This document shows positions 2,013-61,535 of a DNA stretch of 64,000 bases, piece after piece (the first letter of the stretch is position 1; each line of letters begins with the position of its first letter). Location of the stretch: NCBI GenBank assembly GCA_013115125.1, contig JABANN010000094.1:1-64000 (forward strand). The letters run 5' to 3'. The notes below the pieces were generated by a model. That model did not search any database. It saw only the letters and a list, made by a program, of their open reading frames with translations, and was not told where the DNA came from. The translations under genes and the position numbers were made by a program. The DNA is from Perkinsus olseni. Taxonomy: Eukaryota.

Positions 2013-2224
2013 GGTTTGAGGAGAATTAGACACAACATAGAGGGCAAATAACCATGATACAACTCTACTCTGCCGTAGTCAGCTAAAGCGCATGGTCTAG
2101 TGCCTTTTCCTGAGACCCGAGGCTTTTGCGTTCATAGCGTCAATATCAACCACTGCTAGGGCACTGTATCGAAAGAATGGTGCGGAGTGGTACCAAGACA
2201 GTCTTAGAGTGAGTTTTACAGTAA

Positions 2225-3793
2225 ATGACCGCGAAGATCGATGAGAAGCCTGCGGGTGATGTGGTGGCCATCCAAGAGGTACCCCCACCATCGCCACCCG
2301 ATTTCTCACTCGCCCCGTATACAGGATACGAAATACACCTCTCGCGTGGGATGGGCCATATTCATGTACGCGGCCTGCAGCAGCACCCTTCTTGTGAGCC
2401 ATCCGGTATCATCGTTGTCCTTGCAAGTCTCCCGTCAGATAGTCAACAAGTTGGCGGTGCACTCAATACCCTCCCCTTGCTTCGTTCTAGTGTGCCAGTT
2501 CCTTGCAACGGCATGTAGGGCGTTCGCGTAAAGCTTTCCCTCCCTTGCCCTACCTCAGTGTTTGTGAAGTTGTTCGCCAACTACTCGAAGGCTAACGTAG
2601 AGCTCATGCCGCTGGAGTACACGTTGACCCGGCGCTTCAGTGGTGGGGTCGCTCCGTTGTGGGTCACGCGCTCCAGTTTCGTGCTCAGGCGTTGTCGCGA
2701 TATTTTGTCTTTGCCTTTTCACGAATGTGAAAGCCTTGCAGTATGTTAACGTTGAGACCGTCATCGTGTTCAGGCGAGTGTGTATATATCGCTTGAAGCC
2801 AGTGCAGCCTTCACTCATCTCAGATCCTGCTCGCCGCTGGCAGTGACTTTCTTCGACTACTACTATCTGGGACGGGAACTGCCGAGTGGGAAGGTGAGAG
2901 GTTTGTTCATTGTTGCCGTTTTGATCATAGACGTCACGGTCATGAAGCGAGTAGCTCTCCCTTTTAGTCGTGGCTGGCCCTTTTTGGCATCGTCCTGGGT
3001 GCGTTCCTTTACATGGTCAGTGATGATGGAATGCAGGTGAGCCCATCATTCAGTAGGCGGGCCACGCCTCAAGGTCAGGTGCAAGGCTATTTCTGGGTCT
3101 CGCTTTACTTCCTGGCGATTGTCACTGAGATGGCCTTCGTCAAACACATCATCAACACAGGTAAGGCCACTCCACCCCAAACCCGCGACTCTCATCACGG
3201 TTTAGTTGCCATGTCGACATGGACCCGGGTCTACTACAACAACGTTCTGAGCATACCTGTTCTCGCCGTTGCAGCTGCGCTCAATGGCGAGCTTCGAACG
3301 TTGGCTCAGGACTATACTTGGACAGTTGAAGTACTCGGAAGGTGAACGACACTCTCCCATCGAACCAGCGTGCCTCAGGCCGTTCCTTCGTTGCTGGGCT
3401 CGTGCGTTATTGGAATCGGTATATCATTCTACGGATTCCATCTGCGAGAGCTGGTCACGGCCACGACTTTCACTGTGGTAAGGCAACCTCTCAGGTCTGG
3501 CTGAGTCATACCGAGATGGTCAGGTTGGTGTGTTGTGCAAAGTTGCCACGGTTCTGCTGAACCATGCCATATGGGACCACCACTCTAACATGGTTGGTTC
3601 GCTCGCTCTGCTCGGCTGTATAGCGGCAGGCACACAGTAAGGGACCCCGGTGATACAGGAGACACGCGCCCCAACCCTTGGGGGGTTCAGGTATCGCCAG
3701 GCCCCACCTCGCGAAGAGAAGACAGCTTCCGTTCCTGAGGCGAGGGACCTCGAGATGAATGAAGTGCAGTCTGCGAATGAAGAGACGGAATGA
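2225..3793 (+). CDS. Nucleotide-sugar (GDP-mannose/GDP-fucose-type, SLC35/GONST-like) transporter
   Basis: Many hydrophobic exons: CSSTLLV..NKLAV, LFTNVKALQYVNVETVIVFRSCSPLAV, TWTRVYYNNVLS, TATTFTVVG..CKVATV. Confidence 0.85.
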
Positions 3794-4116
3794 ATGTTGT
3801 TCCATACCAGTTGCAATGAAGTGGTTGTAACAAGTTTTGTTGCGTTTGCATAGCAAAAGAGAGTGCCGGAGGACTTTTCAATCCTGGAAATCCACCTGGA
3901 CTCCTCACGATTCGCTTATTCGCTCTATGTATACCGATTCGTGCTCCGCACTCAACAACACAAGTCAAACGCAGAGGAAACTCACGAATTCCGAACTGTA
4001 CAATTATTATAAACGTAATCATCCTTGACATTGAAGTTGCGGACGGCTCTAGCGTTGTGAGCAGCGGGATGCAGTGTTGTAGGCTTCTGAGGGACGGCTG
4101 ATGTCTTCGCATACCG

Positions 4117-5427
4117 TCACGTGGAGATCACCTCAAATGCCCTTGCCGAGTGCACCTTAGCCGCGGACTTGGACGCTTTGTTAAGTTCAGCGAGTACCGC
4201 TCTTCGACCGCTAATGGTGGGCTGCTTGCTCAGTAACGGAACTTGGACACAAACGACCCCGTCCTCAATTCTGTCACAGCGGAACGAACACGGCAGAGAG
4301 TACGAGCTGCGATCATCCCACTTATGGCTCTCGTTCTGGCTAGCGGACGCCTTCACCACATCGACTGGAACCTCATTGGTGAGCTGTGGTGACGCAGCAG
4401 CTGCGGAAATCGCTTCCGAGCAGCCTTCCCGGAGGAGGGCCAGACAGGCTTGGGCTGAGTCATCATCCTCGAGGTAACGCAGCAAGGACTGATAGAAGGC
4501 GTCCGAATGTGTATGAGCCGCCATTGCACACGGCCTTGGAGTCCACCGGTGCAGAGGCCCTTGCGCTGAGCCGAGGTTTCGACGAGTTTCACCTTGACAT
4601 TTCCTCGGCCCAAAACCTCCTCCCTGATATCAGCCTCGAGGGCGTTCAGCTTGCTACTGAGACGCTCGTAGGAACCCCTATACTGTTTTGTCAGTTGCTG
4701 TTGGTGGGTTAGCGAGGCTTTGAGAGTGTTGACTGTCTGGCTGAAGCCTTCCGCGTCCTCGGTCATTTGCTTAACGATGAGACGGAGGTCCTGCACCTGC
4801 AGGGGTCACACCAACGCTTCCTGAGTTTCCTCTACGAACGTGTCCACCTCGGCTTCCAGGGCGACTGAAGTTGAGTCGACCTTAGCCAAGTGCTGCGGCT
4901 GAGTACCTGAGGCAAGCCAAGCTTCATCGAGACCGTGTGGACCACGTTTATTGCCTTCATCCCATCGCAGCGAATCAGCACCCTCTGCGCCAATCGCCGA
5001 AAGGAGGCTGGGCGAGAATACCGGCGTCACGACTGGCTGGACGCTCAGGCTTGGTAAGGCCACTGGCGATGGGACGGGCACAGGGTCGACTTGCAGGTTA
5101 GGAGCCCCGCGGCGGGCCGCCATGACGTCCTCCAGGCGCATACTGGCCGCCTCAGCTCGCAGTAGCCCTCGGTCGTTGTCAGCACTCTGTTGGATGAGGA
5201 GGCTCTGACAGTCGTCGAGCCTCCGGGAGAGGGCGGAGAGGCTGGCGAAGGAGAGCACGTCAAGGGGATGCCGAGGGGTGTTTCTTACTCCTCATCCCGC
5301 TGTCGCCTGACCTTCTGCAGCTCCATTTGCAGTCTCAGTATCTGCTATGCCGAGCGAGAGGGGCTCCGAAGCGGCGCGCGGAGGCCTCACTGACTTGTTC
5401 GTGCTCTGTTGAGCTGTCAGCTTCCAT
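4117..5427 (-). CDS. Hypothetical coiled-coil protein (multi-exon)
   Basis: ORFs 4117-4524, 4353-4796 and 4806-5258 join through short introns; heptad-rich segments such as LRLQMELQKVRRQ and LSSKLNALEADIREE. Confidence 0.55.
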
Positions 5428-5576
5428 GGCTGGAGTCTTCTGATGGGTGGAAGACTTGGCTCGAGGGAGGAGGGGACGAGTATTGCGATAGATGGTATGG
5501 CAAGAAGCCTGGCTACTGGCCGACCAACACAGAGAGCATACGGAGTAGCAAGAAACATCCACATGAAGGTGAACAT

Positions 5577-7966
5577 TCATCGACTCGTCTCACTAAGAGC
5601 GGCGATTTCGGACGCTAGCTCTCGAATTCGCCCCAGATCAACGTTCTCGGAGTTCAACAGCCTCTTGAGACGCTTATAGGGCGACGGCAGGCTGCGGACG
5701 CCCTTCTTCGAGCTCACTGCCTCCGACCATCCCGCGGCGAACTTCACACGGAGAGCGGCGGGAATCTCGCAGCTAGCGACAACATCGGTCGTCTTCAGCC
5801 AAAGGTCGGATAGTATCTACTCTCAAGCAGCTCCAACCTCGCTAGAAAGCGCCCCTTACACCGGCTCTCCTTGCTAGTATGTCGATGACGGGCCTGCTCT
5901 CGTCCAGCCGCCGATGGACTGGGCACGTCGATAGGATGTGTAGCAGCTGCAGCCAGGGAGCCTGCAAAGGCCAGTCGAGACCTGCCCGTCGCAGCCCAGG
6001 ACGGGTCACAGGCTTACACTCGCCTCGAAGTCACTATCCTCACTAAGTTTCTTCTCGGCAAAGATGAGCAGGGCGCGGAGCATTCGGTCGCCAGCGGCAG
6101 AAGGGACGACCGCAGAGGCCCCGGAAAGCAGAACCAGGATCCTGCCTAAGCCCGACTTTAACCGCATCGAAGACTTCACCCTTCCTTCGGCTAGTAGAGT
6201 CGGCGCAACCCTTCGAAGTGCGTCGCACGGGCGAGGCCGCAGCATCGCCAAAAACCAAGGTACCGACTCGGCATCACATCCTCCCATAGTAGATACGACG
6301 GCGGACGTCAGAGCAGGGTCAGAGAGGATATGGTCCGGAAGGACTTTGAGAACAGCAGTGGTGAACCCTGAGATGTTGCCCTCTAGTTGGTAGCACAAAC
6401 ATGACATAATAGTCGGACGGGTCGAGGCTAAGGCGGCGAAGGCCAGCGCCAGTCGGTCCACAGCCAACCCTGCCGTCCTCCTCCCTAGTTCAGCTAGCAG
6501 CCGCGCATGCCGGTCCCCGAACGCCGGGTTGGCATCTCCCATATGGACCAGGACCTCAGCGGCGAAGAAACGTAGCGGAACGGCTTCGCAGAGCGTCCAG
6601 CGAGCCAGCTCGCAGTGCCAAGCTGTACCATTACACGCTAGAGCACAAGCGAGAGGGAGGCCTCCGTTGCGACTAGGACACTTGTGAACCTCATCAGAGC
6701 GATCGTCAGTGATCTCGTCAAGAAGGAGCCTCAGGATGAGTCGCCCGGCCAACTGAGGTTCGCACTTCCGGGAGAGCAGATGGCAACACAGAAGGAGTCG
6801 GCGGAGCGGAAGCGCCTCCGAAATTTCATGCAGCTCCCCGCCCAGTATCTCGCGCCAGAAGCATGTGACCAGTATCATTGTTATCTCTCGGAAAAGCTTG
6901 GCGTGAATCTCAGCGCTCGTCGATCGGTCTGCCTCCACAAGGCCTTGTACAGCCCAGATGAGCTTGTCGGTGAGCTCAGCATCTGCTGCCACCAGGCAGG
7001 CGTCTCGTGTGGCGGCGCTGGCGCTCTTGTCTAGGAGTCGCCTGTGCGTCCTCAAAGCCACAAAATGCTGGTTCAGCCCTGCCGCTGAGTTGCCCCCCTC
7101 GAGGGCCTCTGCGATGCTCCGCAAGTGTCCGATCACTCCCTGGATGGAAATCGGGAGGAGGTCGGCTTCTATCGCAAAATGCTCTTCCACTGCGGCGTTG
7201 ATAAGCTTCACATTAGTAGGAATAACGATGCAGTACTCAGCCACCACTTCCCTCAGAGCCTCCAGAGCAGGGATGGCGCTCACTAAGGAGGCCACGGCGC
7301 TGCTACAGGAAACTGGGGCGACGGGCAGGGCCCTGATGATAGGCTCCAGTGCCCGGACTGTAGGCGGCGGATGGGCCTCTGAAACCCAGGACGCTAAAGC
7401 TTGGCAGACATCCGGGGTCCATGAGGAGGCGCGCTTCGACAAGAAGCGGGTTGCATGCACCGATAGGTTGCCGAGTTTAGGAAGGACGGTGGCCACCAAG
7501 GGAGTCAAGTCAGCTGGGTGGACCGCTGCTGTCGGCAGAGACTCGAGTGCCTGAATACGATGGTCCTGCTCGACTGCTACGCTGCGGGGTGCGGGGTAAC
7601 CTCAGCGAAGGCCTGGAGCTGCCCCTCGGACACTGTGTCCCAGGCGTTGGGCTCCGCAAGGGCGCTGTGGGCCTCCTCCAGCCACTTGTACTTATCTTGT
7701 GACTTCGAGAAGGAGCTCAGCACGTTGCCAAGCGTGAGCCCTGAGTTGACTGAGGTAGGAGCGACCAAGCACCCAGCTGGCTTCATCAGGCCAGTGCGGG
7801 AAGGAGAGGTAGGAGCAGCAGCCTCACCTCTGACCTGGGCCGCGGACTTGCTGGGCGTATGCAGGAAAGTTCGCTGGGAACTGAATATGCCCCGAAGGCG
7901 GTTCGCAGGAGTGAAGCCGATTGGACTCCTCTGTGGAGGCACCCGAGAGCGCCTGGATGACGACAT
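5577..7966 (-). CDS. Hypothetical alpha-helical (ARM/HEAT-like) protein
   Basis: 500-aa Leu/Ala-rich ORF 6006-7508, extended at both ends through GT-AG introns to a stop at 5577. Confidence 0.6.
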
Positions 7967-8149
7967 TCTCTTATGAACCGCCGAGTGAAGATATGCCAAC
8001 TGTCGTACGCAATTCTGATGCCGGGCGGCTCGCGAAGCTCAAGGAGCGCTGGGCTGTTGTTCTTTCTGGCCTATTAACGACACAATAGGGCTATGGTTGA
8101 TAACAAGTCAAATTCATGAAAACAAAAGTCAGTGTACAATACTGTACTT

Positions 8150-11100
8150 CTATGAGACTCTCTCGCCGGTCAGACCAGAGAAGATATCCCGCAGGAGCTC
8201 AGCGTCCTCTTCCTCGTCAGTTCGTCGACTCAGCGTCCACATCGCCTCCTCGACCGTCCTGCACGAGACGAAGTGCCACACAGTGGCCTCTTTCTCCTGC
8301 CCCACCCGCCAGATCCTCGCGGCGGCCTGGGCCGTTTGGGAGTACTTCGCGGGGGGCTCTAGGAGGATCGCATGCGAGGCCACGGTAAGATTCAGGCCTT
8401 GACCGGCAGATGCTAGTGGGCAGAGGAGCACTCGAACTCGACCGTCGAAGAATCTTTCAACCATCTTCAGCCGGCCGACGGACCAGAACACAAAGGGGAC
8501 CTTGTTGGTCTTGAGGGCCGAGCCCAACAAGTGCAGGACCGGGACCCACTTGGAGAACACGCACACAGACTCGCCTAAGGTCTCCGTGATGTGCTTGACC
8601 AGAAGGGTGACACTCGAGATCCGAGTGCCCCACTGACCGACCAGCTGTTGCGTAGCGTCCATGGCCTTCAGGGCCACCTCGGGTATCGGGGTGAAGATCT
8701 CATTGAAGACGGACTCTTCGCAGAGGCTCTCGCTCGGGGCGGGGGAGCTGTCGGCTTCCTCGGGCTCTGGGGGCTCGCCGGCAATGTGGCCAATCTCGTT
8801 GCGACGTGTGAAGACTCGGCACTCAGGGCAGCGGAGACTTCCTCGTCCTCTCTGGAGGAGAATCGTGATGCACTGCTGACAGTAGCTGTGACCGCAGGGG
8901 AGCATACACACCGTCGTCGGCTTCTCAGTGGCACATACTGGGCAGAGTTCGAGACCCGGACGATCTTCGGACTCGGTAGGGAGCTGTGTTTTCAGAAACC
9001 TGCACAGCGGAAGATGACACTACACGTCCAGTAGCGCAACAAATTCACAAAGGCCTCATCGTGAACGAGGAAGAGAGCGGCCGGCCACAAGGAGACAGTG
9101 GATCCTCAGCGTGTCACTCACCGCAAATGCCCAAGGTTTCGCCTCAGTTTGACTTCGGCATCGTTCTCTTCCGCCTGCAGCTCGACAAGTTTGAGCTCAA
9201 GTTCCTCAGGCCCCCACACGATGAGGGCTTGGTCTAGGTCCCAGGACTCAATCTGTCCATTCTGTGGCCGCACATCGCCGTCCGAAGGCCACCGGTAGGC
9301 GAGGCGAGCCTGCCTGAGCTCGTCGTAGCAGCCAAATCGATATCTGCAGGCCTCGCACCAGCTTCGCAGGCAGGCCATGATGCCTTGTATCAATCTGAAG
9401 TACCTGACATGCTGTAAATGGGGGAAGGCTTAACCGACCGCTGCGTGGGCTTACTTGAACAAGTCGGAGCCGGTGGCTGCTTCATAACCGATCTTTTTGA
9501 ACCGCGAAAGCCTCGCGACCCTCTGATACCCCTCGAAGTGCGGGTTCAACCGACAGAAGAAACACGATCGGCCCGGCCGTCCTTTCCCTCGACACTTCTC
9601 GCAGCAGATGCTCTCCGTGACCAAGTGCTCCGGGGGAGAGTCCAGAGGGATGCCCTCCAACGCTTCAACTATTTTCCCTACATGGCCGTCAATCTCCTGA
9701 AGACGAGGAAAAGGCAAAGTCCAATCCGCTGAAAGCTGAGCCGTCTCACTCGGAGATCCTGCTGAAAGTAGGCAGCTGCCATGGGGCCCTGCAGCGTGGG
9801 AGTCGCCACCAGCCACCACTGGCTGGAGTCCGAGGGCAGCTGTTCCCGTAGCTTGTAGTAGTTGGCTGAATGAACTCGGATAGGGACGGAGGTAGCGGCC
9901 AGAAACCTGTAATGGCACGATGAGAGGGAACCAACAAAATAAGGCAGGGACGCACCTCTCGGTCTCTCCCTCTACCTCACGAGGGCTCACTTCGGAGTGA
10001 ACCAAGGCGTGTATCTTCTGAACCTTATCAACCCGCGTGCCGAATTTTCTCTCAGCCTCCAACGCCTTGCTGTATAGCAACCTAGCCTCGGCCTCGTCTT
10101 CTCCCTTCAACTTCAACAGCCCAGCCTGGCCATTCCAGGCCGCCACGAGGTTCCTCAAGGCCTCCTCAGCCCTGTTCGTCGCACCGGCCATCAGCGCCTT
10201 CACGTTCTGCTCGAAGGTGCTGTATTTAACATCAGTAAAGTTCTTCGCCTTCCTCCCCGTGTAAGACGTCTTCTGCTTCATTCGCAAGTCCTGGTGGACG
10301 CATTGCAGCTGCAGCAGCCGCGTGAGGTCCCACAAGTAGGTGACAGCGTTCCTCGAAGCGCCGCGCTTCGCCAGAGACCCCTGGGCCTCCTTCCGTATGG
10401 ACTCCTCCAGCCGACGGTAGCCAAACATCTCCACCGCTGATAGCTCCTGCCAGACCACATGCTGGACAAGACCATGCATCTTCAGTTGGTCCAGCACGTC
10501 CACCTTCCACACTCGCCACAGCAGGCTCTTCATCAACGGCAGCAGCCTGCGCACTCCTCCCTGGGAGTCTTGAATGGCCTTCACATCCGTACCATCGAGT
10601 GGCACTCGCAAAAACTCCAGTACTGGCCGCAGATCCCCTCGGGTCATCGGGGTTCCGGTCACCGCCCATCGGTTAGTGGCCACCAGCCTTCTTAGCATCC
10701 GACAGGCTCCACTGTGGCCGCCCTCAGTCATCTGAGCCTCATCCATAACGAGCCGCCACCATCTCACCCGAAGAAGGGCTGATGGCGTCCGAGTAGAGCT
10801 GGACTGGCGACGGTATCGGAGCGCATGGCGGCTGTCCCACTCGGCCGACTCAGTCCGCAGGAGGCTGGCGCCCAGGACGGTGTATGATACCAATACAATG
10901 TCAGCGGAAACGATATCGGGTAGGCTGGGGTGGACTCCCTGCTCGTTCTCAGCGTAGACTACTAGGCGCATGGCCTGTGCGTGACGACCGATCTCCCGGA
11001 CCCACTGCTGAAGTAAACTCGCTGGCACAACCACGAGCGTGGCGGCTACCGGGAGGAGCTTGACGCGGGCACGGTGGAGGCAGTTGAGGCACACGAACGG

Positions 11101-16399: not shown

Positions 16400-16679
16400 A
16401 GATGGTCGTTGCGGGGGCCCCGCGGGGCGGGGGGGGGGGGGGCCCCCCCCCCCCCAAAAAAACCCCGCGGGTCGGGGGGGGGGGGAAATGTATACTTTTA
16501 AAAGCGGCAATCTTGGGCACCTATTTTTAAGTAGGCCGCGCGNNNNNNNNNNAAAAAAACCAAATAACCTTTTGGGGGTTTTGGCCCCCCCCCCCACGGT
16601 TTAACCATTATTCACCCACCGGGGGGGGCTTTTGGGGCGCCGCCCCCCCCGCCCCGCGGGGCCCCCGCAACGACCATCT
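16400..16679. repeat. GC-rich inverted repeat of about 38 bp flanking low-complexity sequence and an N gap
   Basis: agatggtcgttgcgggggccccgcggggcggggggg at 16400 and its reverse complement ending at 16679; 10 Ns at 16543-16552. Confidence 0.8.
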
Positions 16680-49286: not shown

Positions 49287-51482
49287 CTAATCAACCTTCT
49301 CGTGGACCTGTCCCGTCCTACTCCGAGACTTCCGCCAGAGACGGAATTCTTGCAAAAGATTAACGAGTATTGGAATCAACAGTGGCGCCGCGACCGGCAA
49401 GTAGACAGCCAGAGTGAACTCCTCGCTGAAGTAGCTCCTTGCGGATATGCTGTCGTCCAACAGAAGGTCAACACTTTCCTCGTAGCTCTCCCTAGCCATC
49501 TCCAATGCTCGACGAGTATCATTCAGCATAACCTGACAACCGCCAGTATGGCCCAGAATTTTCATCAGAACCAGTGAGGGATGTTTCTGACGAGAGACAC
49601 TGGAAGCTCTCGGAGAGGCGCAAATCGAAACCAATGGTTTGGTCTCGGGAATGATAAACTAAATTCCTCCCAAGCGTGGCGTTACTAAGTCCGTGTCGAT
49701 GTTCTTCGCAGCCGCTGTGGCTCGACTTGCGATATCCTCGGACACCGCCACTTGAGGGAGGCTCTCCACCAGATCATTAAGCTGTTTCAACGTGCCACGG
49801 GCCGCAGAGCGGTAGTAGATGATAGCTTCTCGCACCAGCTCGAAGAACTCGGGCACGGTCAAGCCGAGAATCGGGTCAGAGCACAACCAACCAACTGCTT
49901 CGTTGCAAGAGGGCACGGGTTCGAATCCCAGGTACGCCCTCAAGTGGGCATGCCACATCCCCGCAGCATAGCCGTATTCGGTCATGGAGGGCACGAAGGC
50001 TACGACACCCCAGCCGGGGACGCCCACACTCGACTTGTCCTCTGCCCCCGCTGTTACCGACATGTTATCGGGCGCTACATAAGCAGCCAGACTGAATGGA
50101 AGAACAAAACCGAGGGCATGCTTCCGAGCAAGTGCCGCAGCTGAGCATAGCGAACATCACGAGCGCAAACTCCCCCGCTCACTGTATCGTATGCGGCAGC
50201 TTCCTATAGCCACGTCTGAGAGTTTCAGGCCTGCCCCAGTGGCTCGCCTCAGCGAGTAGCTGTCGGAGCTGCTTGGTAGTCCTCATTCTATAGCCGCCAT
50301 CTTGCCTGCTTCGAGAATCCCTGGGCAAGACCGCTCCGTGGGCCACCTGTGAGTCCATCTCGATATCGAATACCTGCGAAGGAAGGAACCTTATTTCACT
50401 ACTCAAAACGCCTGGTTGTACTTGTTGTAGGAAACCGCGAACAAACGGCCGCATAAAGGCGTCGAATACGTCATTTCCGAAGTCCCAATGGGCTCTCGCA
50501 GAACTCGCTGCATCGCTCACCAGCAAGAACGTGAGTTGTTGCCTGACACAACCAATACGAGCCAAGGCTGGCCAGTCGGGCGTGACCACCTGGGGTTAGA
50601 CAAAGCAGAGGCCAACGACTCTCGGGAGCTGGCCGCCCGCTCCGGAAACCATACAGTCCTGTAAAGCCACTCAACGCCGAACTGATGGTCACGTGCGTCA
50701 ACAATCCTGACATAGGAACAGAATGCGTACAGACGTAGAGGAACACGCATGCTGAACCAAAATGTGGACTATATTTTTAGAGCCTCTAACCGAGGAATAC
50801 AGTCCAGACCTCGCTTCAACACGCATCCCCGAAAGCGGATGAGACAATAGCCGACCTACGCAAGATTGTCCAGGACAACCGGTCTCCTCGGGGAGGTCAC
50901 TCCGCTAGAGGAATAAGTGAAGATGTGGTAGCGAAGGCCGTCAGCTAGCTTGGCCGATCGTCCCGAAACCACCGTGGTTACGTCGCGCAGAGCAGCAGTG
51001 CAGTTCGAAGAAAGACTGTTGACGGCACAATCTGGCAGAGGAGGGTCAACGCCCAGCTATTGGCGCCCGGGCAAAAACAGGCACGGAAGCTTCATGGTCG
51101 CACCGGCCGCCTTGAGAGCCACTTGATGTCCTCTATCGTAACAGCTATCCACGACTGAGACTTCGAAGGGGCCTCCGAGGGCCGGCACTGGAAGGCTCAC
51201 TACGCTCTGGTCTAGGGAACACGAATGTATCTACAACAACAGTACGGCAACGACATGAAAAAAAAACAGAGGACAACGGTCACCGGTCGAACAGGGGAAG
51301 AGGCCGAGTAGCGCTGAGAGACTTACCAAAACCACAGGCCAGTGTACATCATCATCTCTCCCCAGGTCAACATCGGGCAGAGGGTGCCTCTCCACTGCTT
51401 GCAGCCACGCCCACACCAAGGCGCTGATCGTTATGATGACGCCGTACGCTATTTGCGCCTTATGACGACCCTTCAACCTCAT
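49287..51482 (-). CDS. PIGS: GPI transamidase component PIG-S-like
   Basis: N-terminal TM followed by VERHPLP; VPGWGVV; ARGTLKQLNDLVESLPQVAV; C-terminal YFSEEFTLAVYLPVAAPLLIPIL. Confidence 0.8.
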
Positions 51483-52460
51483 AGGGCACATCGGCCTGGT
51501 CCCTAAACAACAACAACTGCACGACTTCATCACTAGGGCGACAACATCTTTGATTTTCCCGAGCAACAACAACACCGCCTCTCATGCGGCATCGATGCTT
51601 TTGAATACGAAGCGGCAGCGGCGAAGAAGCTGCACGAGCTGCGGCTACGCCGTTCTCAGAGGGGTCACGACAGAATCAAATTGAAGCAATGACCTAGGCG
51701 CTGTAGAGTCACCAGGCGTCCTCTATAGTATAGATATAGTACAGAGTCTTTACACAGACACCACTGGAAGGCGTAGGTATCATCTGAAAACCTGCTGGGC
51801 CTCGCGAGTCAGGAAATATAACGTCATTGGACTTCCACCACTCAGAAGTAGCGGAAACCCTTCGACACGATAGGTCCCTCATTGACTCCACTGACGCAAG
51901 ACGCTTGAAGCGAAGAGGCTGAACAACAGAGGCTGGGGTGGCCTGTACGCACATCGCGTACAGATCACCGCGTCCTCATACGAGTTCGATGTTCTCACTC
52001 CTGCTGGTTCATGCGGGACGGGCTTGGGTTGCCAAGGAAACTCTCAGAGGTCCACCCTAACGTGCCGTCCGCTTTTCGTACCTGAGAGAAAACTGTCATG
52101 GCAAATCAACACGGGAGGGAAGAGTAAGATTCCAAGGACTCGGGCCCTCAACAAACTGGATGAACTCACTTTGATCCAGCCCGACGGGTCGACTTCTTCC
52201 ACACGAACGAGCTCACCCGCCTTGAGCTCAGCCTGCACACCGTAGCGAGCCAGCAACATGACCTCAATATCCTCCTCACCGACCTCATCGCCCGAAGTTT
52301 TGTCGCAGTCTTCCAGCACTCCTTGATTTCAAACAAACCTTCATCCTGTGAGAGGCCAGGTTGCTCACTCTCGCTCAATTCGGCTCCTTTAGAACTCCCT
52401 GAAATCCATCATCCATGGCTTCGGAGGCTTGCCGGTCTTCTAAAGCCTCCCTACTCACCC

Positions 52461-52532
52461 GCTTCAGACGCTTCAGACGCTTCAGACGCTTCAGACGCTT
52501 CAGACGCTTCAGACGCTTCAGACGCTTCAGAC
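52461..52532. repeat. Perfect 9-bp tandem repeat (GCTTCAGAC)x8 encoding (SEA)8
   Basis: Read directly from the sequence; a single unit in the paralog near 56638. Confidence 0.95.
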
Positions 52533-53924
52533 GGTTCGATACGGCGGGTCTTCAGCTTACTCGAGGGACCCGTGACGAGGTCAATGAGAATATCCATCCA
52601 CGTCTCGTCGACCGCCATAACGTCAATTTTCCCTGAGCATTCCCAAACCCCATCCACAGTGACTGAGGTAGCTACCGCCTACTGGTCTCGGGAAAATATT
52701 GAATAACGCCCTGATTCCCGCTCGGCCTCCAGGATATCGAACGGGTCTCGATGTGATCTTCCCACTTGCCCGTATCAAATACCGTCAACCACGTCTTAAA
52801 CTGCTCAGCAGTGACAGGTTCCGTGCATTCGAAGTACCTGTTCACGGATACCCCCATCCGCCTCTCACCGCCATACGGACAATATCACTTACGCACACTC
52901 CCTCATCTTCCCATCACCTCCGGCAACGGTCGTGTCTCCCCTCAGATGAGATCTTCTGCTTTTGAAAGCGTCCTGATTCTGTGGGTTCACGTCCACACAG
53001 CTCCCGCCGGGTCCCGTTCGGGTAACCCGCGAGGCCATAGTGTTCGGAGGGTCCCAGCGAGTAAGGCTGCGCAAAGTACCGTTCATTGAGCAGCACGACG
53101 AAAGCCTCACCCACTGCGACCCCGAGAAAATGCGCTGAAGAAAAAACCCAAATCAATGGTCCTCGACTACCCAGGCGTATCTATGACACATATTCTGGCA
53201 AGAAGCCATTAGTAGCACAGAATGCTGCGTCAAGAGTCAGAAAATCCGCACCCGTTGCGATGAATGATCTCACAAGACTACTCGGAGTAATGAGAAGGCG
53301 CCCAATGCGATGAGACGACCATTGGCGTTGCGAAATTCCACAGCTAAGCCAAGATTCATGGGGTATTTTCAAACTAACCACGTGCCTTCTACGGTACTCA
53401 GGCAAGCCACCTCCCTTAGCGAGGTTCCCCCGGATAACCAGTACTACTTTGGACCAACTGAGCTCTAACTTATCTCTTCTGTACACCAGCATGCCCTCTG
53501 GCTTCAGTGGACGTCCTTCAGGCTTAACCAGCGGCGGCCTGGACTGCTTATCGCAGTAGCACAGACGGTTGCCGAACCTGACCGCCCGACGTGGATAAAT
53601 CTTTTGAGGCTACGACAATACGACTAATTAGCCATCAGCCCCCCTTCATGTGGAGGACACCAGCTCAAGCACCTACCTGTTATTGATACTCGTATCGTCG
53701 ATAACATTACGGAATCTATTCTCCGGAGAGAGGCTTAAGAGGTTATCAGCCAATTGAGCAATGAAGGGATCGTACGATGAGCTGTCTCTGACAGTTGCAA
53801 CCCGCAGCTTTTGCACAACATGAGTACCTGTGAAGCACTTGATTCGAGGACGCATCCGCTCGAGATTCCGTCGTTTGATAGAGCTAAAGGTGAAGTTGTA
53901 CGCGGTGAGGATTGTTCGGGACAA

Positions 53925-54080
53925 TGACATCTCGTAGAAGTCACATCCGTCCAGGCTTGATCCGTACAGTTTCCAGACATACAGTTTTGAGCCATACAGT
54001 GACAACTCGTACAGTATCCAGTGGTACACTTTCAACCCATACGGCGATAACTCGTACACTGTACGAGAGGTCGTACGATG
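53925..54080. repeat. Degenerate 15-bp minisatellite in an intron
   Basis: About 9 units resembling CTGTACGAGTTGTCA on the minus strand. Confidence 0.7.
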
Positions 54081-56013
54081 TAGGGCCTCTTGCGCCGCGG
54101 ACTGTAGGATTACGTATTCTTGCCGCTCGCTCCTTGTTGACGATTATAGAGCGGAACACGAGGTGGAAGGAGACCTTGAAAGACCCCGAGTCCCGGCTGT
54201 ACCCACTAGCCGAGAAGAGAGACGCGCGGATTTTCGCCTTCCGGGGGAATACCTGAAATATCGGTACTCATTCGATATGAACGGACTGGACCTATGGGAA
54301 AACTCTAAGACACGCCACCACCGTATCCAGTTCGAAGCTACCCCATTGGGGTAACCCCAACCACAACCTATCTAAACCTGAGTCTCGAAATTCCGCGCAG
54401 TGGCTCAGCAGACTTACCGGAGATAGATTCCTGAGTATGAACTAGTAAGCATGATACGGTCTCCACCCTTGACTCAAGGGACCTACTTGTCTTCCGCGAT
54501 CTCAGCTTCTCTGAGGAAGGAGGATATCTGCTCCAGCACGCCCTCGTCCACATTAGCAAGGATCTGACATCATCAGGATTCACAGGTAGTGCAACCTCCT
54601 CGGGAGTGAAAACAAGACGCGACTATGGTGAGTGTTCCCCACAACCGTCTACACCATTATAAGTAGCATGGACACGACTATCGAAACGACATCGAGCTTA
54701 AAGGCGGCCCCGCTGATGCAGCTCAAACCTTCACAGAAGAAAGACTTTACAGATTGTCGAAGCCACGAGAGCGATCAGTCGACGAAGCAGGAGCGACTGA
54801 CGATGAGATTGAGGCCCACTTGATCAGCTCTGTCGTCCTTCAAGCTGTTTCTGAGCTCGACCTTGACGTAGTCGAAGGGTGTGATAGGGCCGTTCATTGT
54901 GGAGTTGGCACGGGAAGGAAGAGAAGAGGCCAGTGGAAAAGGTAAAAACGGCGTAGGTATCCAGCCCTGGCATGATAGAGTGCTAGGAGCTCGATGACAC
55001 CGATGCCATTCAGAGCCATGAGCACCCACTCGAGAGACAGGGTGATAAGTGGAGAGGAGAACAGAGTCGGAAGCCAGCAGCTCATTCATTGGAGGATCCG
55101 GAGACAGGTGCACCAGAGGCACCGGCACTGGTTCCGAGTAAACGGAGATGGCCATTCCCTAGCTGGGAGTCGCACCAAGGGTGAGCCGACTTGGCGTGTT
55201 GATCAACAACACTTGCCTGGCAAGTCTTGCCATTAAGGCCAGTGCCATCGAGTCGATTCTAGTGACTCCACGCAGATCTCACCCCATCAAACTCCGGCAG
55301 TCTGTCGGCGGCAACTCCCCTAACCCACGCCGATACTAGATTCTCTCATGGACAGCAAGAGCGAGAAGATGCGAAAAGATGCTTCTCTCCGTCATTCCCT
55401 CATTCATCACCCGAATATGAGCCGAGGCAACTTGCGGAGAAGCCGACCGCTATCAAGAGCAGTCCCACTGAGATCGGGACTGCAAAGGCTGTGATCTAGC
55501 TATGTCACTAATCCTAGTCAACGAGAGTTGAAAAGCGATGTACATGTTGGTCGCGCAGGAGTGTCGTTTCTTCCTCTCTACTTCGTTCGCAGGATTCAAC
55601 TTTCGGCTGAACGGTCAGGTTGGCTGTAATGCGTAGATGGCCGGAGAATTTCAGAGAATACCAGCGGTAACGGCCGGACCCAGCTCCGAGCAGTCGCCAC
55701 AGCAGACGGGGCCAGCCCTCGAGGAGTCGAGTGGTGGCTCTTTACAGAAAGGGAGAGTCACTCCTATCGTGCACTCAACGAACGACGTATCTTCGCCGTA
55801 GCACCGCGCACATACAATCTAGATGGTCGGAAGTTTTCCCACTCCTACTGGCAACCCAAGTCGAATCCAAAGGTTTCAATCGACCAGATTAGATTCAAGG
55901 ACAGGAACCGCATATTGACTCAATTGACAAAAGACTGGCTCTACCAACGAGGACGCGATGGTCTGTGCGCACGCGTGCACAGGCCATCGCTACCCTATAC
56001 AACTGATATCCAC

Positions 56014-59000
56014 TCACTCCTCCATGCGATTAGGGTCGGGATTACCGAGGAACTCGGCCGACACCCAACCCGTACTGCCATCCTCTTTGCGGACCTGAAG
56101 GGACAAGTTCTGAAGCTCGAAACGGGCGAAGCGGTATGATACTGAGAATCAGAGTAACTGCTAGTAGCTTAATACTGAGAATCAGAGCGAGAAGTGCCAA
56201 GTTGAAGCTGTAAGCACGAACAATGATTAAACTCATGATGGGTAGAACTACATAATGTAGCCTACATTCACTACTAGCGGTGAAAATGATAGCCGAGTGA
56301 TAAACCCGAGGTATCGCATTACCCTAGTCCAGCCAGACTGATCAACTTCAATTACTCGAACAAGCTCGCCCGCTTTCAGTTCCACCTGCAGGTAGTGGTG
56401 TGCCGGCGACAAGTCGCAAGACTGTTAGGAGGCCTTCTAACCGACCTCATCGTCCGAAGCCTTAGTATAGTCTTCCAACACTTCTTTAATTTCAAGCATC
56501 TCCTCGTCTTGCGGCGATTCGGGGCCATCCCGACTCGACGTCGCAGCACCGGAAACGCCAGCGGTTTGAAGCATGTCTAAGATCACCAACACGAGTCCCG
56601 GAGGCCTGCCGAGCCCCACTTGCGTCTCTACTTACCCGCTTCAGATGGCTCTATGTGGCGGGTCTTCAGCTTACTCGAGGGACCCGTGACGAGGTCGACG
56701 AGAATATCCATCCACGTCTCGTCAATTGCCATCACGTCAATTTTCCCTGGAAAAATGGTCAAACTCTATTCACACTGACTGAGGCAGGCACGGCCTACTG
56801 GTCTCGGGGAAGTATTGGATAACGCCCTGATTCCCGCTCGGCCTCCAGGATATCGAACGGGTCTCGATGTGATCTTCCCACTTGCCCGTATCAAATACCG
56901 TCAACCATGTCTTAAACTGCTCAGCAGTGACAGGTTCCGTGCATTCGAAGTACCTGTTCACGGATACCCCCATCCGCCTCTCACCGCCAAACCGCCGATG
57001 TCACTTACGCACACTCCCTCATCTTCCCATCACCTCCGGCAACGGTCGTGTCTCCCCTCAGCTGAGATCTTCTGCTTTTGAAAGCGTCCTGGTTCTGTGG
57101 GTTCACGTCCACACAGCTCCCGCCGGGTCCCGTTCGGGTAACCCGCGAGGCCATAGTGTTCGGAGGGTCCCAGCGAGTGAGTTTACGCAAGGTACCATCC
57201 ATTGAACGGCACGACGAAAGCCTCACCCACTTAGAGTCCGACAATTTGTCCTGAGCGGAAAGCCTCACTGAAAACGCCAGGAGAAGTGATTGCGCCAAAG
57301 GACTTCCACTTGCGAGCCGACATCACAACCTAGAGTCGCGTGAGCTACACAGAGACGAGTCTATTCATTCTAATATGAAATGCTCTACCCCATATGGTTG
57401 GGTCCTTGAAGTTGAATCCCGTAGGGAGCACAACATCGGTCAAGCGGCAAGCACCCTTCCGCAGTACTGTGTCAAGCCAAACAAATTTTTGACCATCTCT
57501 GTTGTATCGCAGGATGCCCTCTGGCTTCAGTGGACGTCCCTCAGGCTTAACCAGTGGCGGCCTGGATTGCTTGTCGCAGTAGCACAGACGATTACCGAAC
57601 CTGAGCACCATCAGACCGATATTTCTTTCGAGGCTACGACGATACGACAAGTTAGCCATCATCCCCCCCTTGACGTGAAGGACACTTACCTGTTATTGAT
57701 ACTCGTCTCATCGATAACATTGCGAAACCTGTTCTCCGGAGAGAGCTTGAGGAGATCTCGGGACAACGTGGCAATGAAGGGATCGTACGACGAGTTGTCT
57801 TCCAAGGATGCCGACCACAACATTTGAACCACGTGTGTACCTAACGCGAGCTGTTCCCAACCGAGACGTGCTGGTCTCTCGGTTTACAACAACCCTCACT
57901 TACGTATTTTCGGTGCTCGCCTCCTATCAACAATGATGTTGGGGAATACCAGATGGAGCGAGACCTTGAAGGAGCCCGAATCGCGACTATATCCGCTCGC
58001 CGAGAACAGTGCCGCGTCCACATGCTTTTTCTCGGGGAAAACCTGACACGTGCCACTCGATCCAGCGGATAGAGAATTCATCAAAGAAATTTCGATTTTC
58101 CACCACCGCTCTACATTGAACACGCAGGAACCTCAGCAGCTTTGTGCTTCGCACATTAACACGCCCAGATGTGTTTCGGCGGTCTCGGAAATTTTCTGCG
58201 GAATACACTTGACCTCCAGCCGGTCCCAAATAATCCATCTCAGCAAAGCACCTTCTACCGCTGGAACAGTTACACGAGCCTCGCGGTGAACACTTACCGG
58301 AGACAGGTTCCTGAGTATGAACTCGAAGAAGCGGGTGCCACCGTCCCTATCGATGATGGCCTTCTCAGCAGTGGCGCAATGCTCCCATTTCATATCGGCT
58401 CCCAGCTTAACATCGATATCCAAGACCAGATTGAAATTCTCATCTTGGCGTTCGGTGAGGAACATCGGAATGCCCCAGTCGTAGAGTACAGCGATGTACC
58501 TGTCAAGTCCACCATGGCACGGAAGGCCCCATCAGCCAACCTCTCACTTGTACAGCTGCTCCAGTTGGGTGTGTTGGAATCTGAACCTGTTCGTCGAGCT
58601 GTACCAGGTAACGGCATTACCGTAATTGCAGTGGGTGGCGTGCCTAGTAAGCATGATACGGTCTCCACCCTTGACTCAAGGGACCTACTTGTCTTCCGCG
58701 ATCTCAGCTTCTCTGAGGAAAGAGGATATCTGCTCCAGCACGCCCTCGTCCACATTAGCAAGGATCTGACATCACCACTGTCGATGTTGCGTATCTCACT
58801 AGCTCACGAGTCCACGGACAGGCGATCTACCACGCGCATGCGCTGATGTCCACAGCCTTAGAGATGATTTGACTAGAAGCAGCAGCCTCGAGACCATCAT
58901 ACTGCAACCACAGGTCTAGACTCGTGAGTAGAATCACTATCACGAAGCTACGGAATGTGGATAGGAGTGGCTGGCGAGGACCCTGTCTGGGCGTGACTGC

Positions 59001-59096
59001 AGAGCGATACCCGCTCACCCCCTCAGCTCTATCCTCCTTCAGACAGCTTCTAAGCTCAATCTTAACATAGTCCAACGCCGTGATAGGGGAGCTCAT
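56014..59096 (-). CDS. AEP (PrimPol / NCLDV C962R-like primase-polymerase) domain fused to a C-terminal SH3 domain
   Basis: HATH..FLTERQDENFNLVLDIDVK (motif I), FKVSLHLVFP (II), NVIDETS..RLCYCDK..EGRPL (III); SH3 KEVLEDYTKASDDEVELKAGELVRVIEVDQSGWTRVRKEDGSTGWVSAEFL. Confidence 0.8.
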
Positions 59097-59665
59097 TGGT
59101 GGGGAAGGGCCGATGGGAGGCAGGGGGGACGGGGAGTTCTCGAGGCAATGCCAAGAAAGCTAACACTCCAAGATCTACCGCAGCCGCTATGACGCACAAG
59201 AGGGACCGGGTCACGCTCGTCGAACGCAGCAGAGACGCAGTCAACCTCGCTGAACAAAGGCGTAGGAATCCATCGCAAGATGGTCCCGCTCCGATGCTCA
59301 CGGAGGGAACCATGTCTTGACAGAAAGTTGTCCATGCACTCACAATGTCACAGAAAACCAATGCGGTCAAAAATCCTACTCGCACGCGTGCGCAAGCGCG
59401 CCTACCTGCTATTCCAGGGGCATATCTATAGAACGAGTCCCCGTTGCTACTAGGAGTCAAACCCTCCACCACACTCGTTGCCCGACCGCTGCGCCACGAA
59501 ATTCCCAGGCCGACTAGCCTCATCACACAACCAAACATTGACACTTCCGCCTTGAAGATAATGATTTTGTCGTTATTGGTGGCACTTGCTCGGCGACGCA
59601 AACTCCTTCTAAACGTTGGTGCACCGCCGTCGCCCTTAGAGCCGAGCTCACCATCACCACCTTCT

Positions 59666-61535
59666 TCACTGGCTTCCGCCACCCAGCAACGCCTGGGCCG
59701 CCTCAGCCCCCGCCCGCGCGGCCGCGTCCTGACCCTCACCCTGACCTCCGAAGCTCCGAGGGTTCTGCACCGGCATCGCATTTGCGTTGTCCGAGAAGCC
59801 CCCGGCGCCCCAGGCCTGCTGCTGCAACATCGGGGGGCCTCCACTCCAGCCTTGGCCACCGCTTGTAGAAGTCATTCCCCAACCACAAATACTCGCTTGC
59901 TGCGGCATGGCATTCCATTGCTGCTGGCTGGCCGGTGCTGGCAGGCCTCCAGCAGAGGGCGACTCTACGAAGCCTTGAGGTCGGCTCACAATCAAACGTC
60001 GACCGAGCACTTCCATCTGAGCACAAGTGACGTGAGTGACACTTCAGTTCGACGCTCCTCACCCCATTGAAGATGCTCAGCGCAGCCGTTGCTAATCGGT
60101 CGTTCTGGAACTCGACGAAGGCAAACCTGACCAAACAGCTTCCGCTACCCCCATGTCACCCTCAAACTACCTTCCATCCCCCCTGATGTCCGCCTGGAGC
60201 ACCGGAGGCCCCAGGGCCGGGTCATAGTCCGGTAGCACTTTGCAGGCGGGCTCAAACAACTCGTGAAGGACTTGAGGCGTGACCACCCCAATCTGCCATC
60301 ACATCATTGCACTCAGCACGAGCCCAGCCGCGGCCTACCGCGAGATTTCCGACGTAGAGCTCACGCTGCTTCCGATTCTGCGAGGGGTTGGAAGGCATCG
60401 CCTTGGCTGACAAGGAGGGGATTCACTGAGGCCCCAACGACCAACAGTCTTACTTGGAAGGAAGCCTTGGTTACGCAGGACACTGACGTCCATCGGTGGA
60501 GGGGGAGGGCCCGGTAAGACAAGCCCCGTCGGTCGACCAATCTTCACGGGCCGTCCTGATCGCAATGCAATGACCATTATCATCATCAAAGCCCTCCCGA
60601 CTAGTACCAAGAAACTCAGCCTTGTCCAGCTCAAGGCAGGTGACAGCGATCTCCTCCGATGCGAACTCGACGAAGGCGTACATGCCCTCAGCCGACATCC
60701 TCACTTCCCTCACCGCACCGGTCGGTAGGAGAGCAGCGTACCTGGTCCAAAGGAGTACTAAGAGGAGCTGCCTGGCGGGCTTGGACTCACTTCTGCTGGT
60801 ACTCCGGGAGAGCCGACAAAGCGTTGTTGAAGAAGGCCCGTATGTTGGCCTGCGTTGCCTGGCCTTGGGCTAGGTTTCCCACGTACAGCTGAGGACAAAC
60901 GGTGATGTTCCCTCCCTCTCAACCCGACACCCACCTCCTTAGCCTTCTTATTAGCACCTGCACCACCAGGGAGCATTGCCTGCTGTAAGAGAAGCTGCTG
61001 GGGGTCGATGGAGCCATCCGGCGGCGCCGAACCTGCACGTAACAACACTATCGACCACCCAAGCACGCGCAAAGCCCTGAAGCCCAATGCTACTGAAATT
61101 GCTGTGCTTGGCTCCGGGCTGCTCAGTCTCGTCATCCCAGCCACTCTTCCTAGCGTGCCTCCGTCTCGATCTAGACCGAGATCTTGAACTCCGAGAGCTT
61201 TCGGAGCCCGAGGACGATCCCGATCTGGATCTTCCGCGGTGACGACGGCTGCCGCGATCCCTGGACCTGACCAAGGCCAATCATGTATGGCGATTCGAAG
61301 GGGTTGTTCCAGCATGACCGGCCAGGTCCCACCTCGAGCGCCTCCGACTTCGACTTTCCCGACCGGACCCTCGGCTCCTCCCACGGGATTCGCTTCTGCT
61401 ACTTCGCCTCCCACGGTCTCTACCGCGAGAGCTTTCCTGGCGTTCCCCATTGTACTCTGCCGGAGGGGCGCCGGTCGGCTGAGGCTCAGCACTGGGCGCG
61501 GGGTCGTCCCAACCAGGAGGTGGTGGTGGTGCCAT
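59666..61535 (-). CDS. U2AF65-like splicing factor (RS region, KSGWD motif, two RRMs)
   Basis: RSRSR repeats, RKSGWDD, LYVGNL..YAFVEF, KIGRP, second RELYVGNL..FAFVEF. Confidence 0.8.

Follow-up and report, generated by a model that had tools for sequence, protein, structure and literature searches.

The 64,000-nucleotide (nt) window analysed here (positions 1 to 64,000 of Perkinsus olseni contig JABANN010000094.1, assembly GCA_013115125.1) carries on its minus strand a gene, here called copy A, that joins a module of the archaeo-eukaryotic primase (AEP) type to a C-terminal SH3 domain, followed downstream by a tandem copy B and by a gene for the glycosylphosphatidylinositol (GPI) transamidase subunit PIG-S (table 1). 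Copy A occupies positions 56014-59096, with its ATG at 59096-59094 and its TGA at 56016-56014, exactly the interval that a first-pass annotation of the sequence had assigned to an intron-rich AEP-SH3 gene.

A Spliced and Transcribed Gene

With the P. marinus ortholog P0002 (PMAR003674, 553 amino acids [aa]) as a tblastn guide, copy A resolves into 13 exons and 12 introns (45-255 nt), all of the introns bounded by GT and AG. The resulting coding sequence (CDS) of 1659 nt has one stop, the terminal one, and encodes 552 aa, of which 455 of 551 compared are identical in P0002 (82.6%). A profile of our family alignment A1 without its Perkinsus row (38 rows remaining) matches the spliced product at 312.9 bits in a single stretch (residues 33-543). 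The peptide pieces quoted in the first-pass annotation are found in the stop-to-stop frames of the minus strand.

Copy A is an ordinary nuclear Perkinsus gene with 12 spliceosomal introns; it is transcribed, and its AEP and SH3 parts are present in one mRNA. RNA contigs from four runs (X1, X2, X4, and X16, of which X2 and X16 are recorded as RNA) were aligned to window positions 55600-59500, and the spliced form was seen in all four. One contig from X2 (1880 nt) and one from X4 (1846 nt) each span 12 of 12 joints, which bears out the earlier expectation of a single transcript for both domains; the 12 joints of X1 are spread over two contigs, and the short contigs of X16 show 11, the joint 57837/57901 not being seen there. 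All joints read CT..AC on the plus strand (GT..AG on the minus strand) and fall at the positions of the model, and no differing letters or indels are listed between the RNA contigs and the window. Intron bins have a depth of 0 in all four runs; the joints alone, and not these coverage gaps, were taken as evidence of splicing. Across a wider set of 24 runs, 0.26-0.44 of the words sampled from the 3083-nt stretch are present, close to what exons alone would give because these make up 1659 of the 3083 nt.

The contig from X2 also defines the ends of the message, being composed of 15 loose letters, 65 letters ahead of the CDS (59161-59097), the 1659-nt CDS, and 141 nt of 3′ untranslated region (UTR). 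The loose end at 59161, seen in X2 and X16, reads, when reverse-complemented, as a stretch of the 22-nt spliced leader (SL) of Perkinsus, PmaSL1, which is quoted in full in a published account (PMC3101222). Since the loose letters of X2 match the leader as quoted there, the mRNA is trans-spliced; the predicted junction lies at the AG at 59161-59160 and is ambiguous by two letters because the last two SL bases are the same AG as in the genome. At the other end a 2719-nt contig from X1 runs 772 letters past 55600, which may reflect a long 3′ UTR or read-through toward copy B.

Table 1. Features of the AEP-SH3 locus in the window (all on the minus strand)
Feature	Position	Strand	Basis or remark
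Copy A coding span, ATG to stop	56014..59096	-	Gene model and 12 joints in RNA contigs
AG acceptor for SL trans-splicing	59160..59161	-	Loose contig end against PmaSL1; mRNA body from 59159; predicted junction
5′ UTR, 63 nt	59097..59159	-	X2 contig reaches 59161; ATG at 59096
Exon 1, 78 nt	59019..59096	-	Gene model and RNA joints
Exon 2, 77 nt	58689..58765	-	Gene model and RNA joints
Exon 3, 96 nt; family-invariant His of THCNYG	58548..58643	-	Gene model, RNA joints, alignment
Exon 4, 202 nt; AEP motif I LDIDV at 58423-58409 (D111, D113)	58298..58499	-	Gene model and RNA joints
Exon 5, 139 nt; AEP motif II SLHLVFP at 57961-57941 (S179, H181)	57904..58042	-	Gene model and RNA joints
Exon 6, 151 nt; AEP motif III VIDETS at 57718-57701 (D241/E242)	57690..57840	-	Gene model and RNA joints
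Exon 7, 133 nt; GNRLCYCDK at 57596-57570 and conserved PEGRPLKP	57468..57600	-	Gene model, RNA joints, alignment
Exon 8, 242 nt; end of AEP module and disordered linker	57009..57250	-	Gene model, RNA joints, structure model
Linker motif RTGPGGS, residues 331-337	57116..57136	-	R in 32, T in 33, G in 35 of the 39 rows of A1
Exon 9, 155 nt; middle domain, first half	56799..56953	-	Gene model, RNA joints, domain model
Exon 10, 111 nt; middle domain, second half	56636..56746	-	Gene model, RNA joints, domain model
Exon 11, 131 nt; acidic linker and SH3 start (LEDYTKAS at 56478-56455)	56446..56576	-	Gene model and RNA joints
Exon 12, 63 nt; SH3 middle	56323..56385	-	Gene model and RNA joints
Exon 13, 81 nt with stop; SH3 end (GWVSAEFL at 56070-56047)	56014..56094	-	Gene model and RNA joints
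3′ UTR, at least 141 nt	55873..56013	-	Contig ends at 55873 (X2) and 55883 (X4); X1 contig extends further
Tandem copy B	51995..54897	-	Directly downstream of copy A; without exon 3, 178 nt of exon 4 (motif I), and 1 nt of exon 11
PIG-S (GPI transamidase subunit)	49290..51467	-	Downstream of copy B

An AEP Module of the C962R Type

As modelled, the N-terminal ∼320 aa form an AEP primase-polymerase module of the C962R type, within the clade that unites primases of nucleocytoplasmic large DNA viruses (NCLDV) and herpesviruses with PrimPol, and its catalytic motifs are intact. P0002 exceeds the Pfam cut-offs for AEP_C962R (PF23162; 48.8 bits vs. 23, residues 69-244) and PPL4 (29.9 vs. 25). An AlphaFold2 model of P0002 based on the 39 rows of A1 (predicted local distance difference test score [pLDDT] 84.7) is ordered over residues 1-327, 371-463, and 490-553 and disordered over 328-370 and 464-489, its N-terminus being a folded helix within the AEP module. 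Foldseek places AsfvPrimPol, the C962R protein of African swine fever virus (ASFV), first among PDB entries (E 1.7e-8, probability 1.00), and VIA aligns 248 residues of the two (Z 18.3, root-mean-square deviation [rmsd] 3.5); against the isolated N-terminal domain of AsfvPrimPol (8iqc_B) the template modelling (TM) score, target-normalised, is 0.64. Human PrimPol (CCDC111) gives the second-best fold match (Z 13.4, rmsd 4.0, 216 aligned), ahead of UL52 of herpes simplex virus 1 (Z 11.7) and the AEP domains of monkeypox virus E5 (Z 10.8) and vaccinia virus D5 (Z 10.7).

Comparison with predicted viral structures (BFVD) likewise returns NCLDV C962R-like and D5-like proteins as top matches (E 3.5e-12 upward), from Pandoravirus, medusavirus, mimivirus, and Feldmannia virus. 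Together with the Pfam and AsfvPrimPol scores, these matches uphold the initial assignment to the NCLDV/C962R-type AEPs, and the P0002 model has both the AEP and the SH3 fold that the first-pass annotation had told its readers to expect of AlphaFold and Foldseek. Whole-protein matches in the ESM Atlas (0.77-0.80) all lie in viral AEP_C962R clusters and serve as leads only. A sequence search of PDB with the A1 profile had nothing but SH3 domains among the best 60 matches, and an SH3-free profile (A3, 13 sequences) had no match to PDB sequences at E≤10; the tie between the AEP module and solved structures therefore rests on fold comparison.

The catalytic strings reported from the raw sequence are all present on spliced exons (LDIDV, SLHLVFP, VIDETS, and GNRLCYCDK, in exons 4-7) and supply D111 and D113 of motif I, S179 and H181 of motif II, and D241/E242 of motif III. 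In C962R, as described in the structural report (PMC10516667), D97, D99, and D200 bind two Mn2+, H157 contacts the phosphates of dCTP, and the enzyme extends primers with a preference for deoxynucleoside triphosphates (dNTPs). The DxD, His, and acid of copy A stand in the same motif order as these D97/D99/H157/D200 residues. According to the same source, C962R is a viral primase-helicase of 962 aa that includes an SF3 helicase and a tail domain and assembles into hexamers and dodecamers. Copy A, in contrast, is a 13-exon gene for a 552-aa cellular product that has no helicase and carries a middle domain of TBP-like arrangement and an SH3 domain instead, and the aligned part of P0002 is only 14-17% identical to C962R.

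The usual viral arrangement, in which D5_N/PriCT and an SF3 helicase come after the AEP, is not what this gene encodes: the complete mRNA, from SL to 3′ UTR, codes for 552 aa only. P0002 has no Pfam match to helicase, PriCT, or PF03121 (Herpes_UL52) at E≤1, and residues 241-381 of copy A contain six Cys and no His, with no family-conserved Cys/His cluster for a zinc finger of the UL52 type, so that the absence of all three parts, remarked upon in the first-pass annotation, stands. Human PrimPol resembles copy A in being a cellular, helicase-free AEP of the NCLDV-herpesvirus clade, but differs in having the UL52-type zinc finger. Motif I of PrimPol is DxE, as opposed to the DxD of copy A, and its C-terminus holds a Zn finger and RPA-binding motifs where copy A has an SH3 domain. 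Herpesvirus UL52 and poxvirus D5/E5 share the AEP fold and the clade but score below C962R, and their primase domains are, unlike copy A, parts of viral helicase-primase machines.

Linker, Middle Domain, and SH3 Domain

The C-terminal part is a canonical eukaryotic SH3 domain. P0002 scores 33.4 bits against SH3_1 (cut-off 22.9, residues 495-538) and 33.2 against SH3_2 (cut-off 21.8), the two together covering residues 495-543, and VIA superposes its SH3 on those of other proteins, including Nck, Csk, Crk/CED-2, and p47phox, at Z ∼11 (rmsd 0.9-1.7 over 56-64 residues). In copy A the domain is split over exons 11-13 and is complete, as first described. Unlike in canonical SH3 proteins, it here forms the C-terminal end of an enzyme of the polymerase type.

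The middle domain (∼95 aa) appears in models as a TBP-like arrangement (beta-alpha-beta4-alpha), without membership of a known family. Modelled alone from a 36-row alignment (P0002 residues 366-470), it reaches a pLDDT of 83.3 with the element order beta-alpha-beta-beta-beta-beta-alpha-beta. Foldseek finds no match for it at E≤0.001, the best being CENP-N (E 0.026) followed by TBP and Iml3, with probabilities of 0.8-0.99 for CENP-N and TBP. Among 48,161 PDB representatives YgiF scores highest with VIA (Z 9.0), and PabB, Med18/20, the spermine synthase N-domain, the phosphoglucomutase C-domain, the RNase H3 N-domain, TBP, and CENP-N follow at Z 6.5-8.4, values that span many unrelated families and a range (6.5-9.0) that VIA calls common. 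A TBP half, the RNase H3 N-domain, the phosphoglucomutase C-domain, CENP-N/L, and Med18/20 have the same element order, but with no match at E≤0.001 and identities of 4-18% this is a likeness of arrangement and not of family. The ESM Atlas gave no usable match for the region 320-470. The description of this domain as unrecognised thus holds in that no specific relative was found, to which a confident model now adds the TBP-like arrangement; of the strings first quoted for it, YFECTEP and IDVMAIDE are present in the protein, whereas VNR is intron, the exon starting at 56953.

Between the AEP module and the middle domain lies the motif RTGPGGS, whose T, G, G, and S do not vary in alignment A2. 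Its extended form, R-x-x-R-T-G-P-G-G-S, belongs to the most conserved stretches of the family, and it sits within the disordered linker where the pLDDT of the P0002 model is <50 (residues 328-370).

A Cellular Family in Perkinsus, Dinoflagellates, and Uncultured Myzozoans

A word-index search with exon 4 yielded two proteins, P0002 and P0001, among 17 candidates, and one with full-length P0002 retrieved only P0002 itself and P0011. Besides P0002, an ortholog is present in P. chesapeaki (P0001; FOL47_005396, 1020 aa), whose record fuses the PIG-S neighbour to the AEP-SH3 model in what looks like an annotation merge. In P. marinus, a 71-aa protein on another contig (P0035; PMAR026529) is a motif I fragment, 93% identical to residues 96-140 of P0002; this species may have two copies or two haplotypes.

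The family proper emerged with phmmer, by which P0002 has 305 matches at E≤1e-3 among 1.84 billion representatives, 81 of them at E≤1e-10. Seven of the first 10 relatives scanned have both AEP_C962R and SH3 at E≤0.01 and five pass both curated cut-offs; the 39 members of alignment A1 include 29 with AEP_C962R and 25 with SH3_1. Databases label these proteins as “hypothetical” or “SH3 domain-containing”. Named members come from Amphidinium massartii (P0017), Polykrikos kofoidii (P0093), and a cluster with a Symbiodinium protein (P0066), joined by several MMETSP transcripts, and the dinoflagellate sequences are 30-35% identical to P0002 by phmmer. The architecture thus recurs in P. marinus, P. 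chesapeaki, and dinoflagellates, where the first-pass annotation had suggested looking for it; neither the size of the family nor the tandem copy B figured there.

A nearer clade (P0004, P0006, P0011, P0013, and P0029) is encoded on metagenome contigs and is 28-35% identical over full length. Three of its loci were obtained, of which L001 (10.6 kb; 1-10663) carries the homolog as an uninterrupted, intronless open reading frame of 545 codons, next to genes for a glycogen phosphorylase, a KH protein, a Syf1/Clf1-type HAT-repeat protein, and a PP2C. The phosphorylase shares 60-62% identity with its counterparts in Eimeria, Vitrella, Cryptosporidium, and gregarines, and 55-57% with those in dinoflagellates. 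These identities and the housekeeping character of the neighbours lead us to regard L001 as a piece of an uncultured, intron-poor myzozoan and not of a virus; the idea that the near-clade contigs are giant viruses, which we had considered, was rejected on the same grounds, the phosphorylase being apicomplexan- or Vitrella-like. Two further phosphorylases (P0195 and P0197) lie on contigs of the same size (10331 and 15844) as those of P0011 and P0004. The AEP-SH3 gene seems to keep a glycogen phosphorylase neighbour in this uncultured clade.

To judge from these sequence relationships, copy A belongs to a cellular family present in Perkinsus, dinoflagellates, and uncultured myzozoans. Other relatives of the AEP module are attached to different domains, namely a CCCH zinc finger (P0058), an N-terminal DCD (P0082), and, in Polykrikos, a beta-helix (P0093); for P0058 and P0082, which do not match Pfam AEP_C962R at E≤1e-3, the link is by phmmer alone.

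A Tandem Copy without Motif I

Relative to copy A, copy B has lost 322 nt, made up of exon 3 with intron 3 and also 178 nt of exon 4; exon 11 is short of a further 1 nt, at a position that P. olseni records of the B type read through. If the acceptor of copy A is applied (exon start 54441), the frame stops at codon 96. That the first lesion is necessarily a frameshift was nevertheless rejected, as alternative AG acceptors (exon starts 54430, which is 11 nt beyond the copy A-type acceptor position, and 52321) would keep 448 codons open. The two copies are 98.5% identical in DNA over exon 2 and intron 2 and 91.6% over 608 nt that include exons 8-10 with their introns, with much lower values in the remaining parts; the 91.6% stretch looks like gene conversion. 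The ratio of nonsynonymous to synonymous substitution rates (dN/dS) between A and B is ∼0.2 in every region with unsaturated dS, the remaining AEP exons included.

A further P. olseni record (P0169; KAF4707550.1) is of the B type at both ends, matching copy B at 25 of 26 N-terminal and 48 of 52 C-terminal residues, and has the 95 residues that the window copy lacks, 94 of them identical to copy A. As this record is full-length, both paralogs are normally full-length, and the copy B of the window is either a variant with a deletion, a pseudogene of recent origin, or a fault of the assembly. In its exon 10, at 52459-52545 (minus strand), a run of GAAGCGTCT units, coding for repeated Ser-Glu-Ala, makes the exon 63 nt longer than that of copy A.

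Predicted Function

We consider it slightly more probable than not that copy A, an expressed cellular gene of this family, encodes an active, helicase-independent primase-polymerase with a docking SH3 domain. PrimPol reprimes synthesis and bypasses lesions without a helicase, and the Perkinsus protein would work in a similar way, making or extending short DNA chains on a single-stranded DNA template at stalled forks or gaps. The SH3 domain would dock the enzyme on a proline-rich partner, and the middle domain may hold nucleic acid or a partner protein. For the protein itself, activity as a primase-polymerase on single-stranded DNA, with the SH3 domain as a tether and a role for the middle domain, is a prediction that we judge about evenly balanced. 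The retention in copy A and its Perkinsus orthologs of all catalytic residues, His included, argues for such activity, as does the triad of acidic residues (111, 113, and 241 or 242) in the nine nearest relatives including Perkinsus, eight of which keep it, the exception being P0012. The first-pass annotation had proposed a domesticated virus-like nucleotidyltransferase, recruited through proline-rich partners and possibly acting in signalling, defence, or organelle DNA or RNA synthesis. Its observations are confirmed and its interpretation partly supported, as the data contain no pointer to signalling, defence, or organelles, no targeting prediction having been made.

Several points weigh against an active polymerase. 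The Pfam and fold tests were done on P0002, 82.6% identical to copy A, and not on copy A itself; single exons of the window fall below the AEP_C962R cut-off, although exon 4 (18.6 bits, profile positions 31-61) and exon 5 (13.5 bits, positions 89-130) are collinear, and the SH3 exon pieces are likewise individually sub-threshold in Pfam, as would be expected of domains split between exons. The residues were matched to the catalytic site of C962R by motif order and not from an inspected superposition. Within the family, an acid (D or E) occupies position 111 in 38 of the 39 rows of A1 and position 113 in 28, the full acidic triad is intact in only 25, and the motif II His occurs in a single row, that of Perkinsus, the others having Arg (37) or Lys (1). 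Since triad and His are not kept family-wide, the function that the family shares may not be polymerisation. Copy B of the window has lost motif I, yet constraint on it is not relaxed. The Perkinsus SH3 domain, finally, has Ser at the Pro of the last, “P..Y” segment, which most family members retain. Most SH3 domains likewise have Pro there.

An alternative is a pseudo-enzyme or adaptor, in which the AEP fold persists as a scaffold for binding nucleic acid or nucleotides; what the family conserves would then be not polymerisation but a role in binding or recruiting, exercised by the TBP-like domain together with the RTGPGGS linker and the SH3 domain. The 14 of 39 members of A1 that miss at least one triad acid and the 38 without the motif II His agree with it, as do the best-conserved columns of the alignment (H56, P95, E100, and R270 invariant; R252 and D257 in 38 of 39), all of which lie outside the classical motifs, and the dN/dS of ∼0.2 in the remaining AEP exons of a copy B devoid of motif I. 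However, the near-clade members other than P0012 retain DxD and the motif III acid, an Arg at the His position might still make contact with the triphosphate, and the B-type copy in the P. olseni record has motif I, so that the window has lost it through a local deletion. A non-catalytic scaffold is the main rival explanation, though we think it rather unlikely for copy A; it takes its support from the degenerate motifs of many dinoflagellate paralogs and suits the Perkinsus gene less well because the Perkinsus gene retains all catalytic residues.

A different proposition is that the enzyme works on RNA, or on nucleic acid that is modified or unusual, for example by RNA-templated or untemplated synthesis or by extension of RNA 3′ ends, instead of repriming DNA. 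It draws on relatives that bear nucleic-acid-related domains (CCCH in P0058 and DCD in P0082, again by their phmmer link alone) and on a middle domain arranged like TBP-like nucleic-acid binders (RNase H3 N-domain and TBP, Z 6.5-7.2), but those fusions sit in paralogs and not in the copy A gene, and Z scores of 6.5-9 are in the range that the tool calls common. C962R, the closest solved relative, prefers dNTPs according to its description (PMC10516667), and we regard an RNA enzyme as improbable. A DNA primase-polymerase tethered by its SH3 domain remains our preferred reading of copy A. Should it prove active, the protein would be a candidate for a lineage-specific polymerase that reprimes synthesis or fills gaps in organisms whose chromatin is very unusual, and the SH3 domain offers a direct handle on the identity of its partner. 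The question is experimentally tractable because Perkinsus species can be cultivated.

Origin and Novelty

In structure and in Pfam the nearest relatives are viral, which raises the possibility of a recently integrated giant-virus gene without host function, or else of a gene model that artificially joins two genes. Both are hardly credible in view of the 12 spliceosomal introns, the SL trans-splicing, and a single contig across the whole CDS. Orthologs exist in three Perkinsus species, PIG-S is the neighbour in the window as well as in the P. chesapeaki record, and dN/dS is ∼0.2; the neighbours on L001 are cellular, and members at 30-35% identity extend across the dinoflagellates. Copy A therefore does not have the marks of an endogenous viral element, its frame also being intact.

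An older origin, from a giant-virus primase before the split of perkinsids and dinoflagellates, is plausible. Viral contigs scanned with a few peptide patterns gave no relatives, neither for A2, with 15 stretches matching its patterns, nor for P0077, which is weak evidence of absence. In its fullest form, a scenario that we advance tentatively and consider doubtful, an ancestor of perkinsids and dinoflagellates would have acquired a C962R-type primase-polymerase from a giant virus and joined to it a TBP-like domain and an SH3 domain, a second independent eukaryotic domestication of this viral AEP clade besides PrimPol. The product would have become a lineage-specific replication or repair factor, multiplying in dinoflagellates into numerous paralogs of which a part would be catalytically dead, with the invariant though disordered RTGPGGS as a regulatory or docking switch.

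To our knowledge, PrimPol is the one cellular enzyme of the NCLDV-herpesvirus AEP clade known in eukaryotes, trypanosomatids having PrimPol-like proteins. Copy A presents an AEP of the NCLDV-herpes-PrimPol clade within a cellular architecture that is new (AEP, a domain of TBP-like arrangement, and SH3), and the locus represents another cellular lineage of that clade, structurally nearer to the ASFV enzyme than to PrimPol and conserved from Perkinsus to dinoflagellates. Full-text literature searches, exclusive of subscription journals and supplements and judged by titles and the openings of abstracts, yielded no description of a joined AEP and SH3 domain or of this family; as far as we have seen, the architecture is visible in databases through precomputed Pfam matches but apparently has not been discussed. 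It provides a test case in the Dinozoa for the exchange of replication genes, from virus to host or from host to virus.

Elsewhere in the window, the minus-strand frames upstream of copy A (59700-60900) resemble exons of an RRM-type RNA-binding protein (LYVGNL, FAFVEF), and a run of 10 N at 16543-16552 marks an assembly gap.

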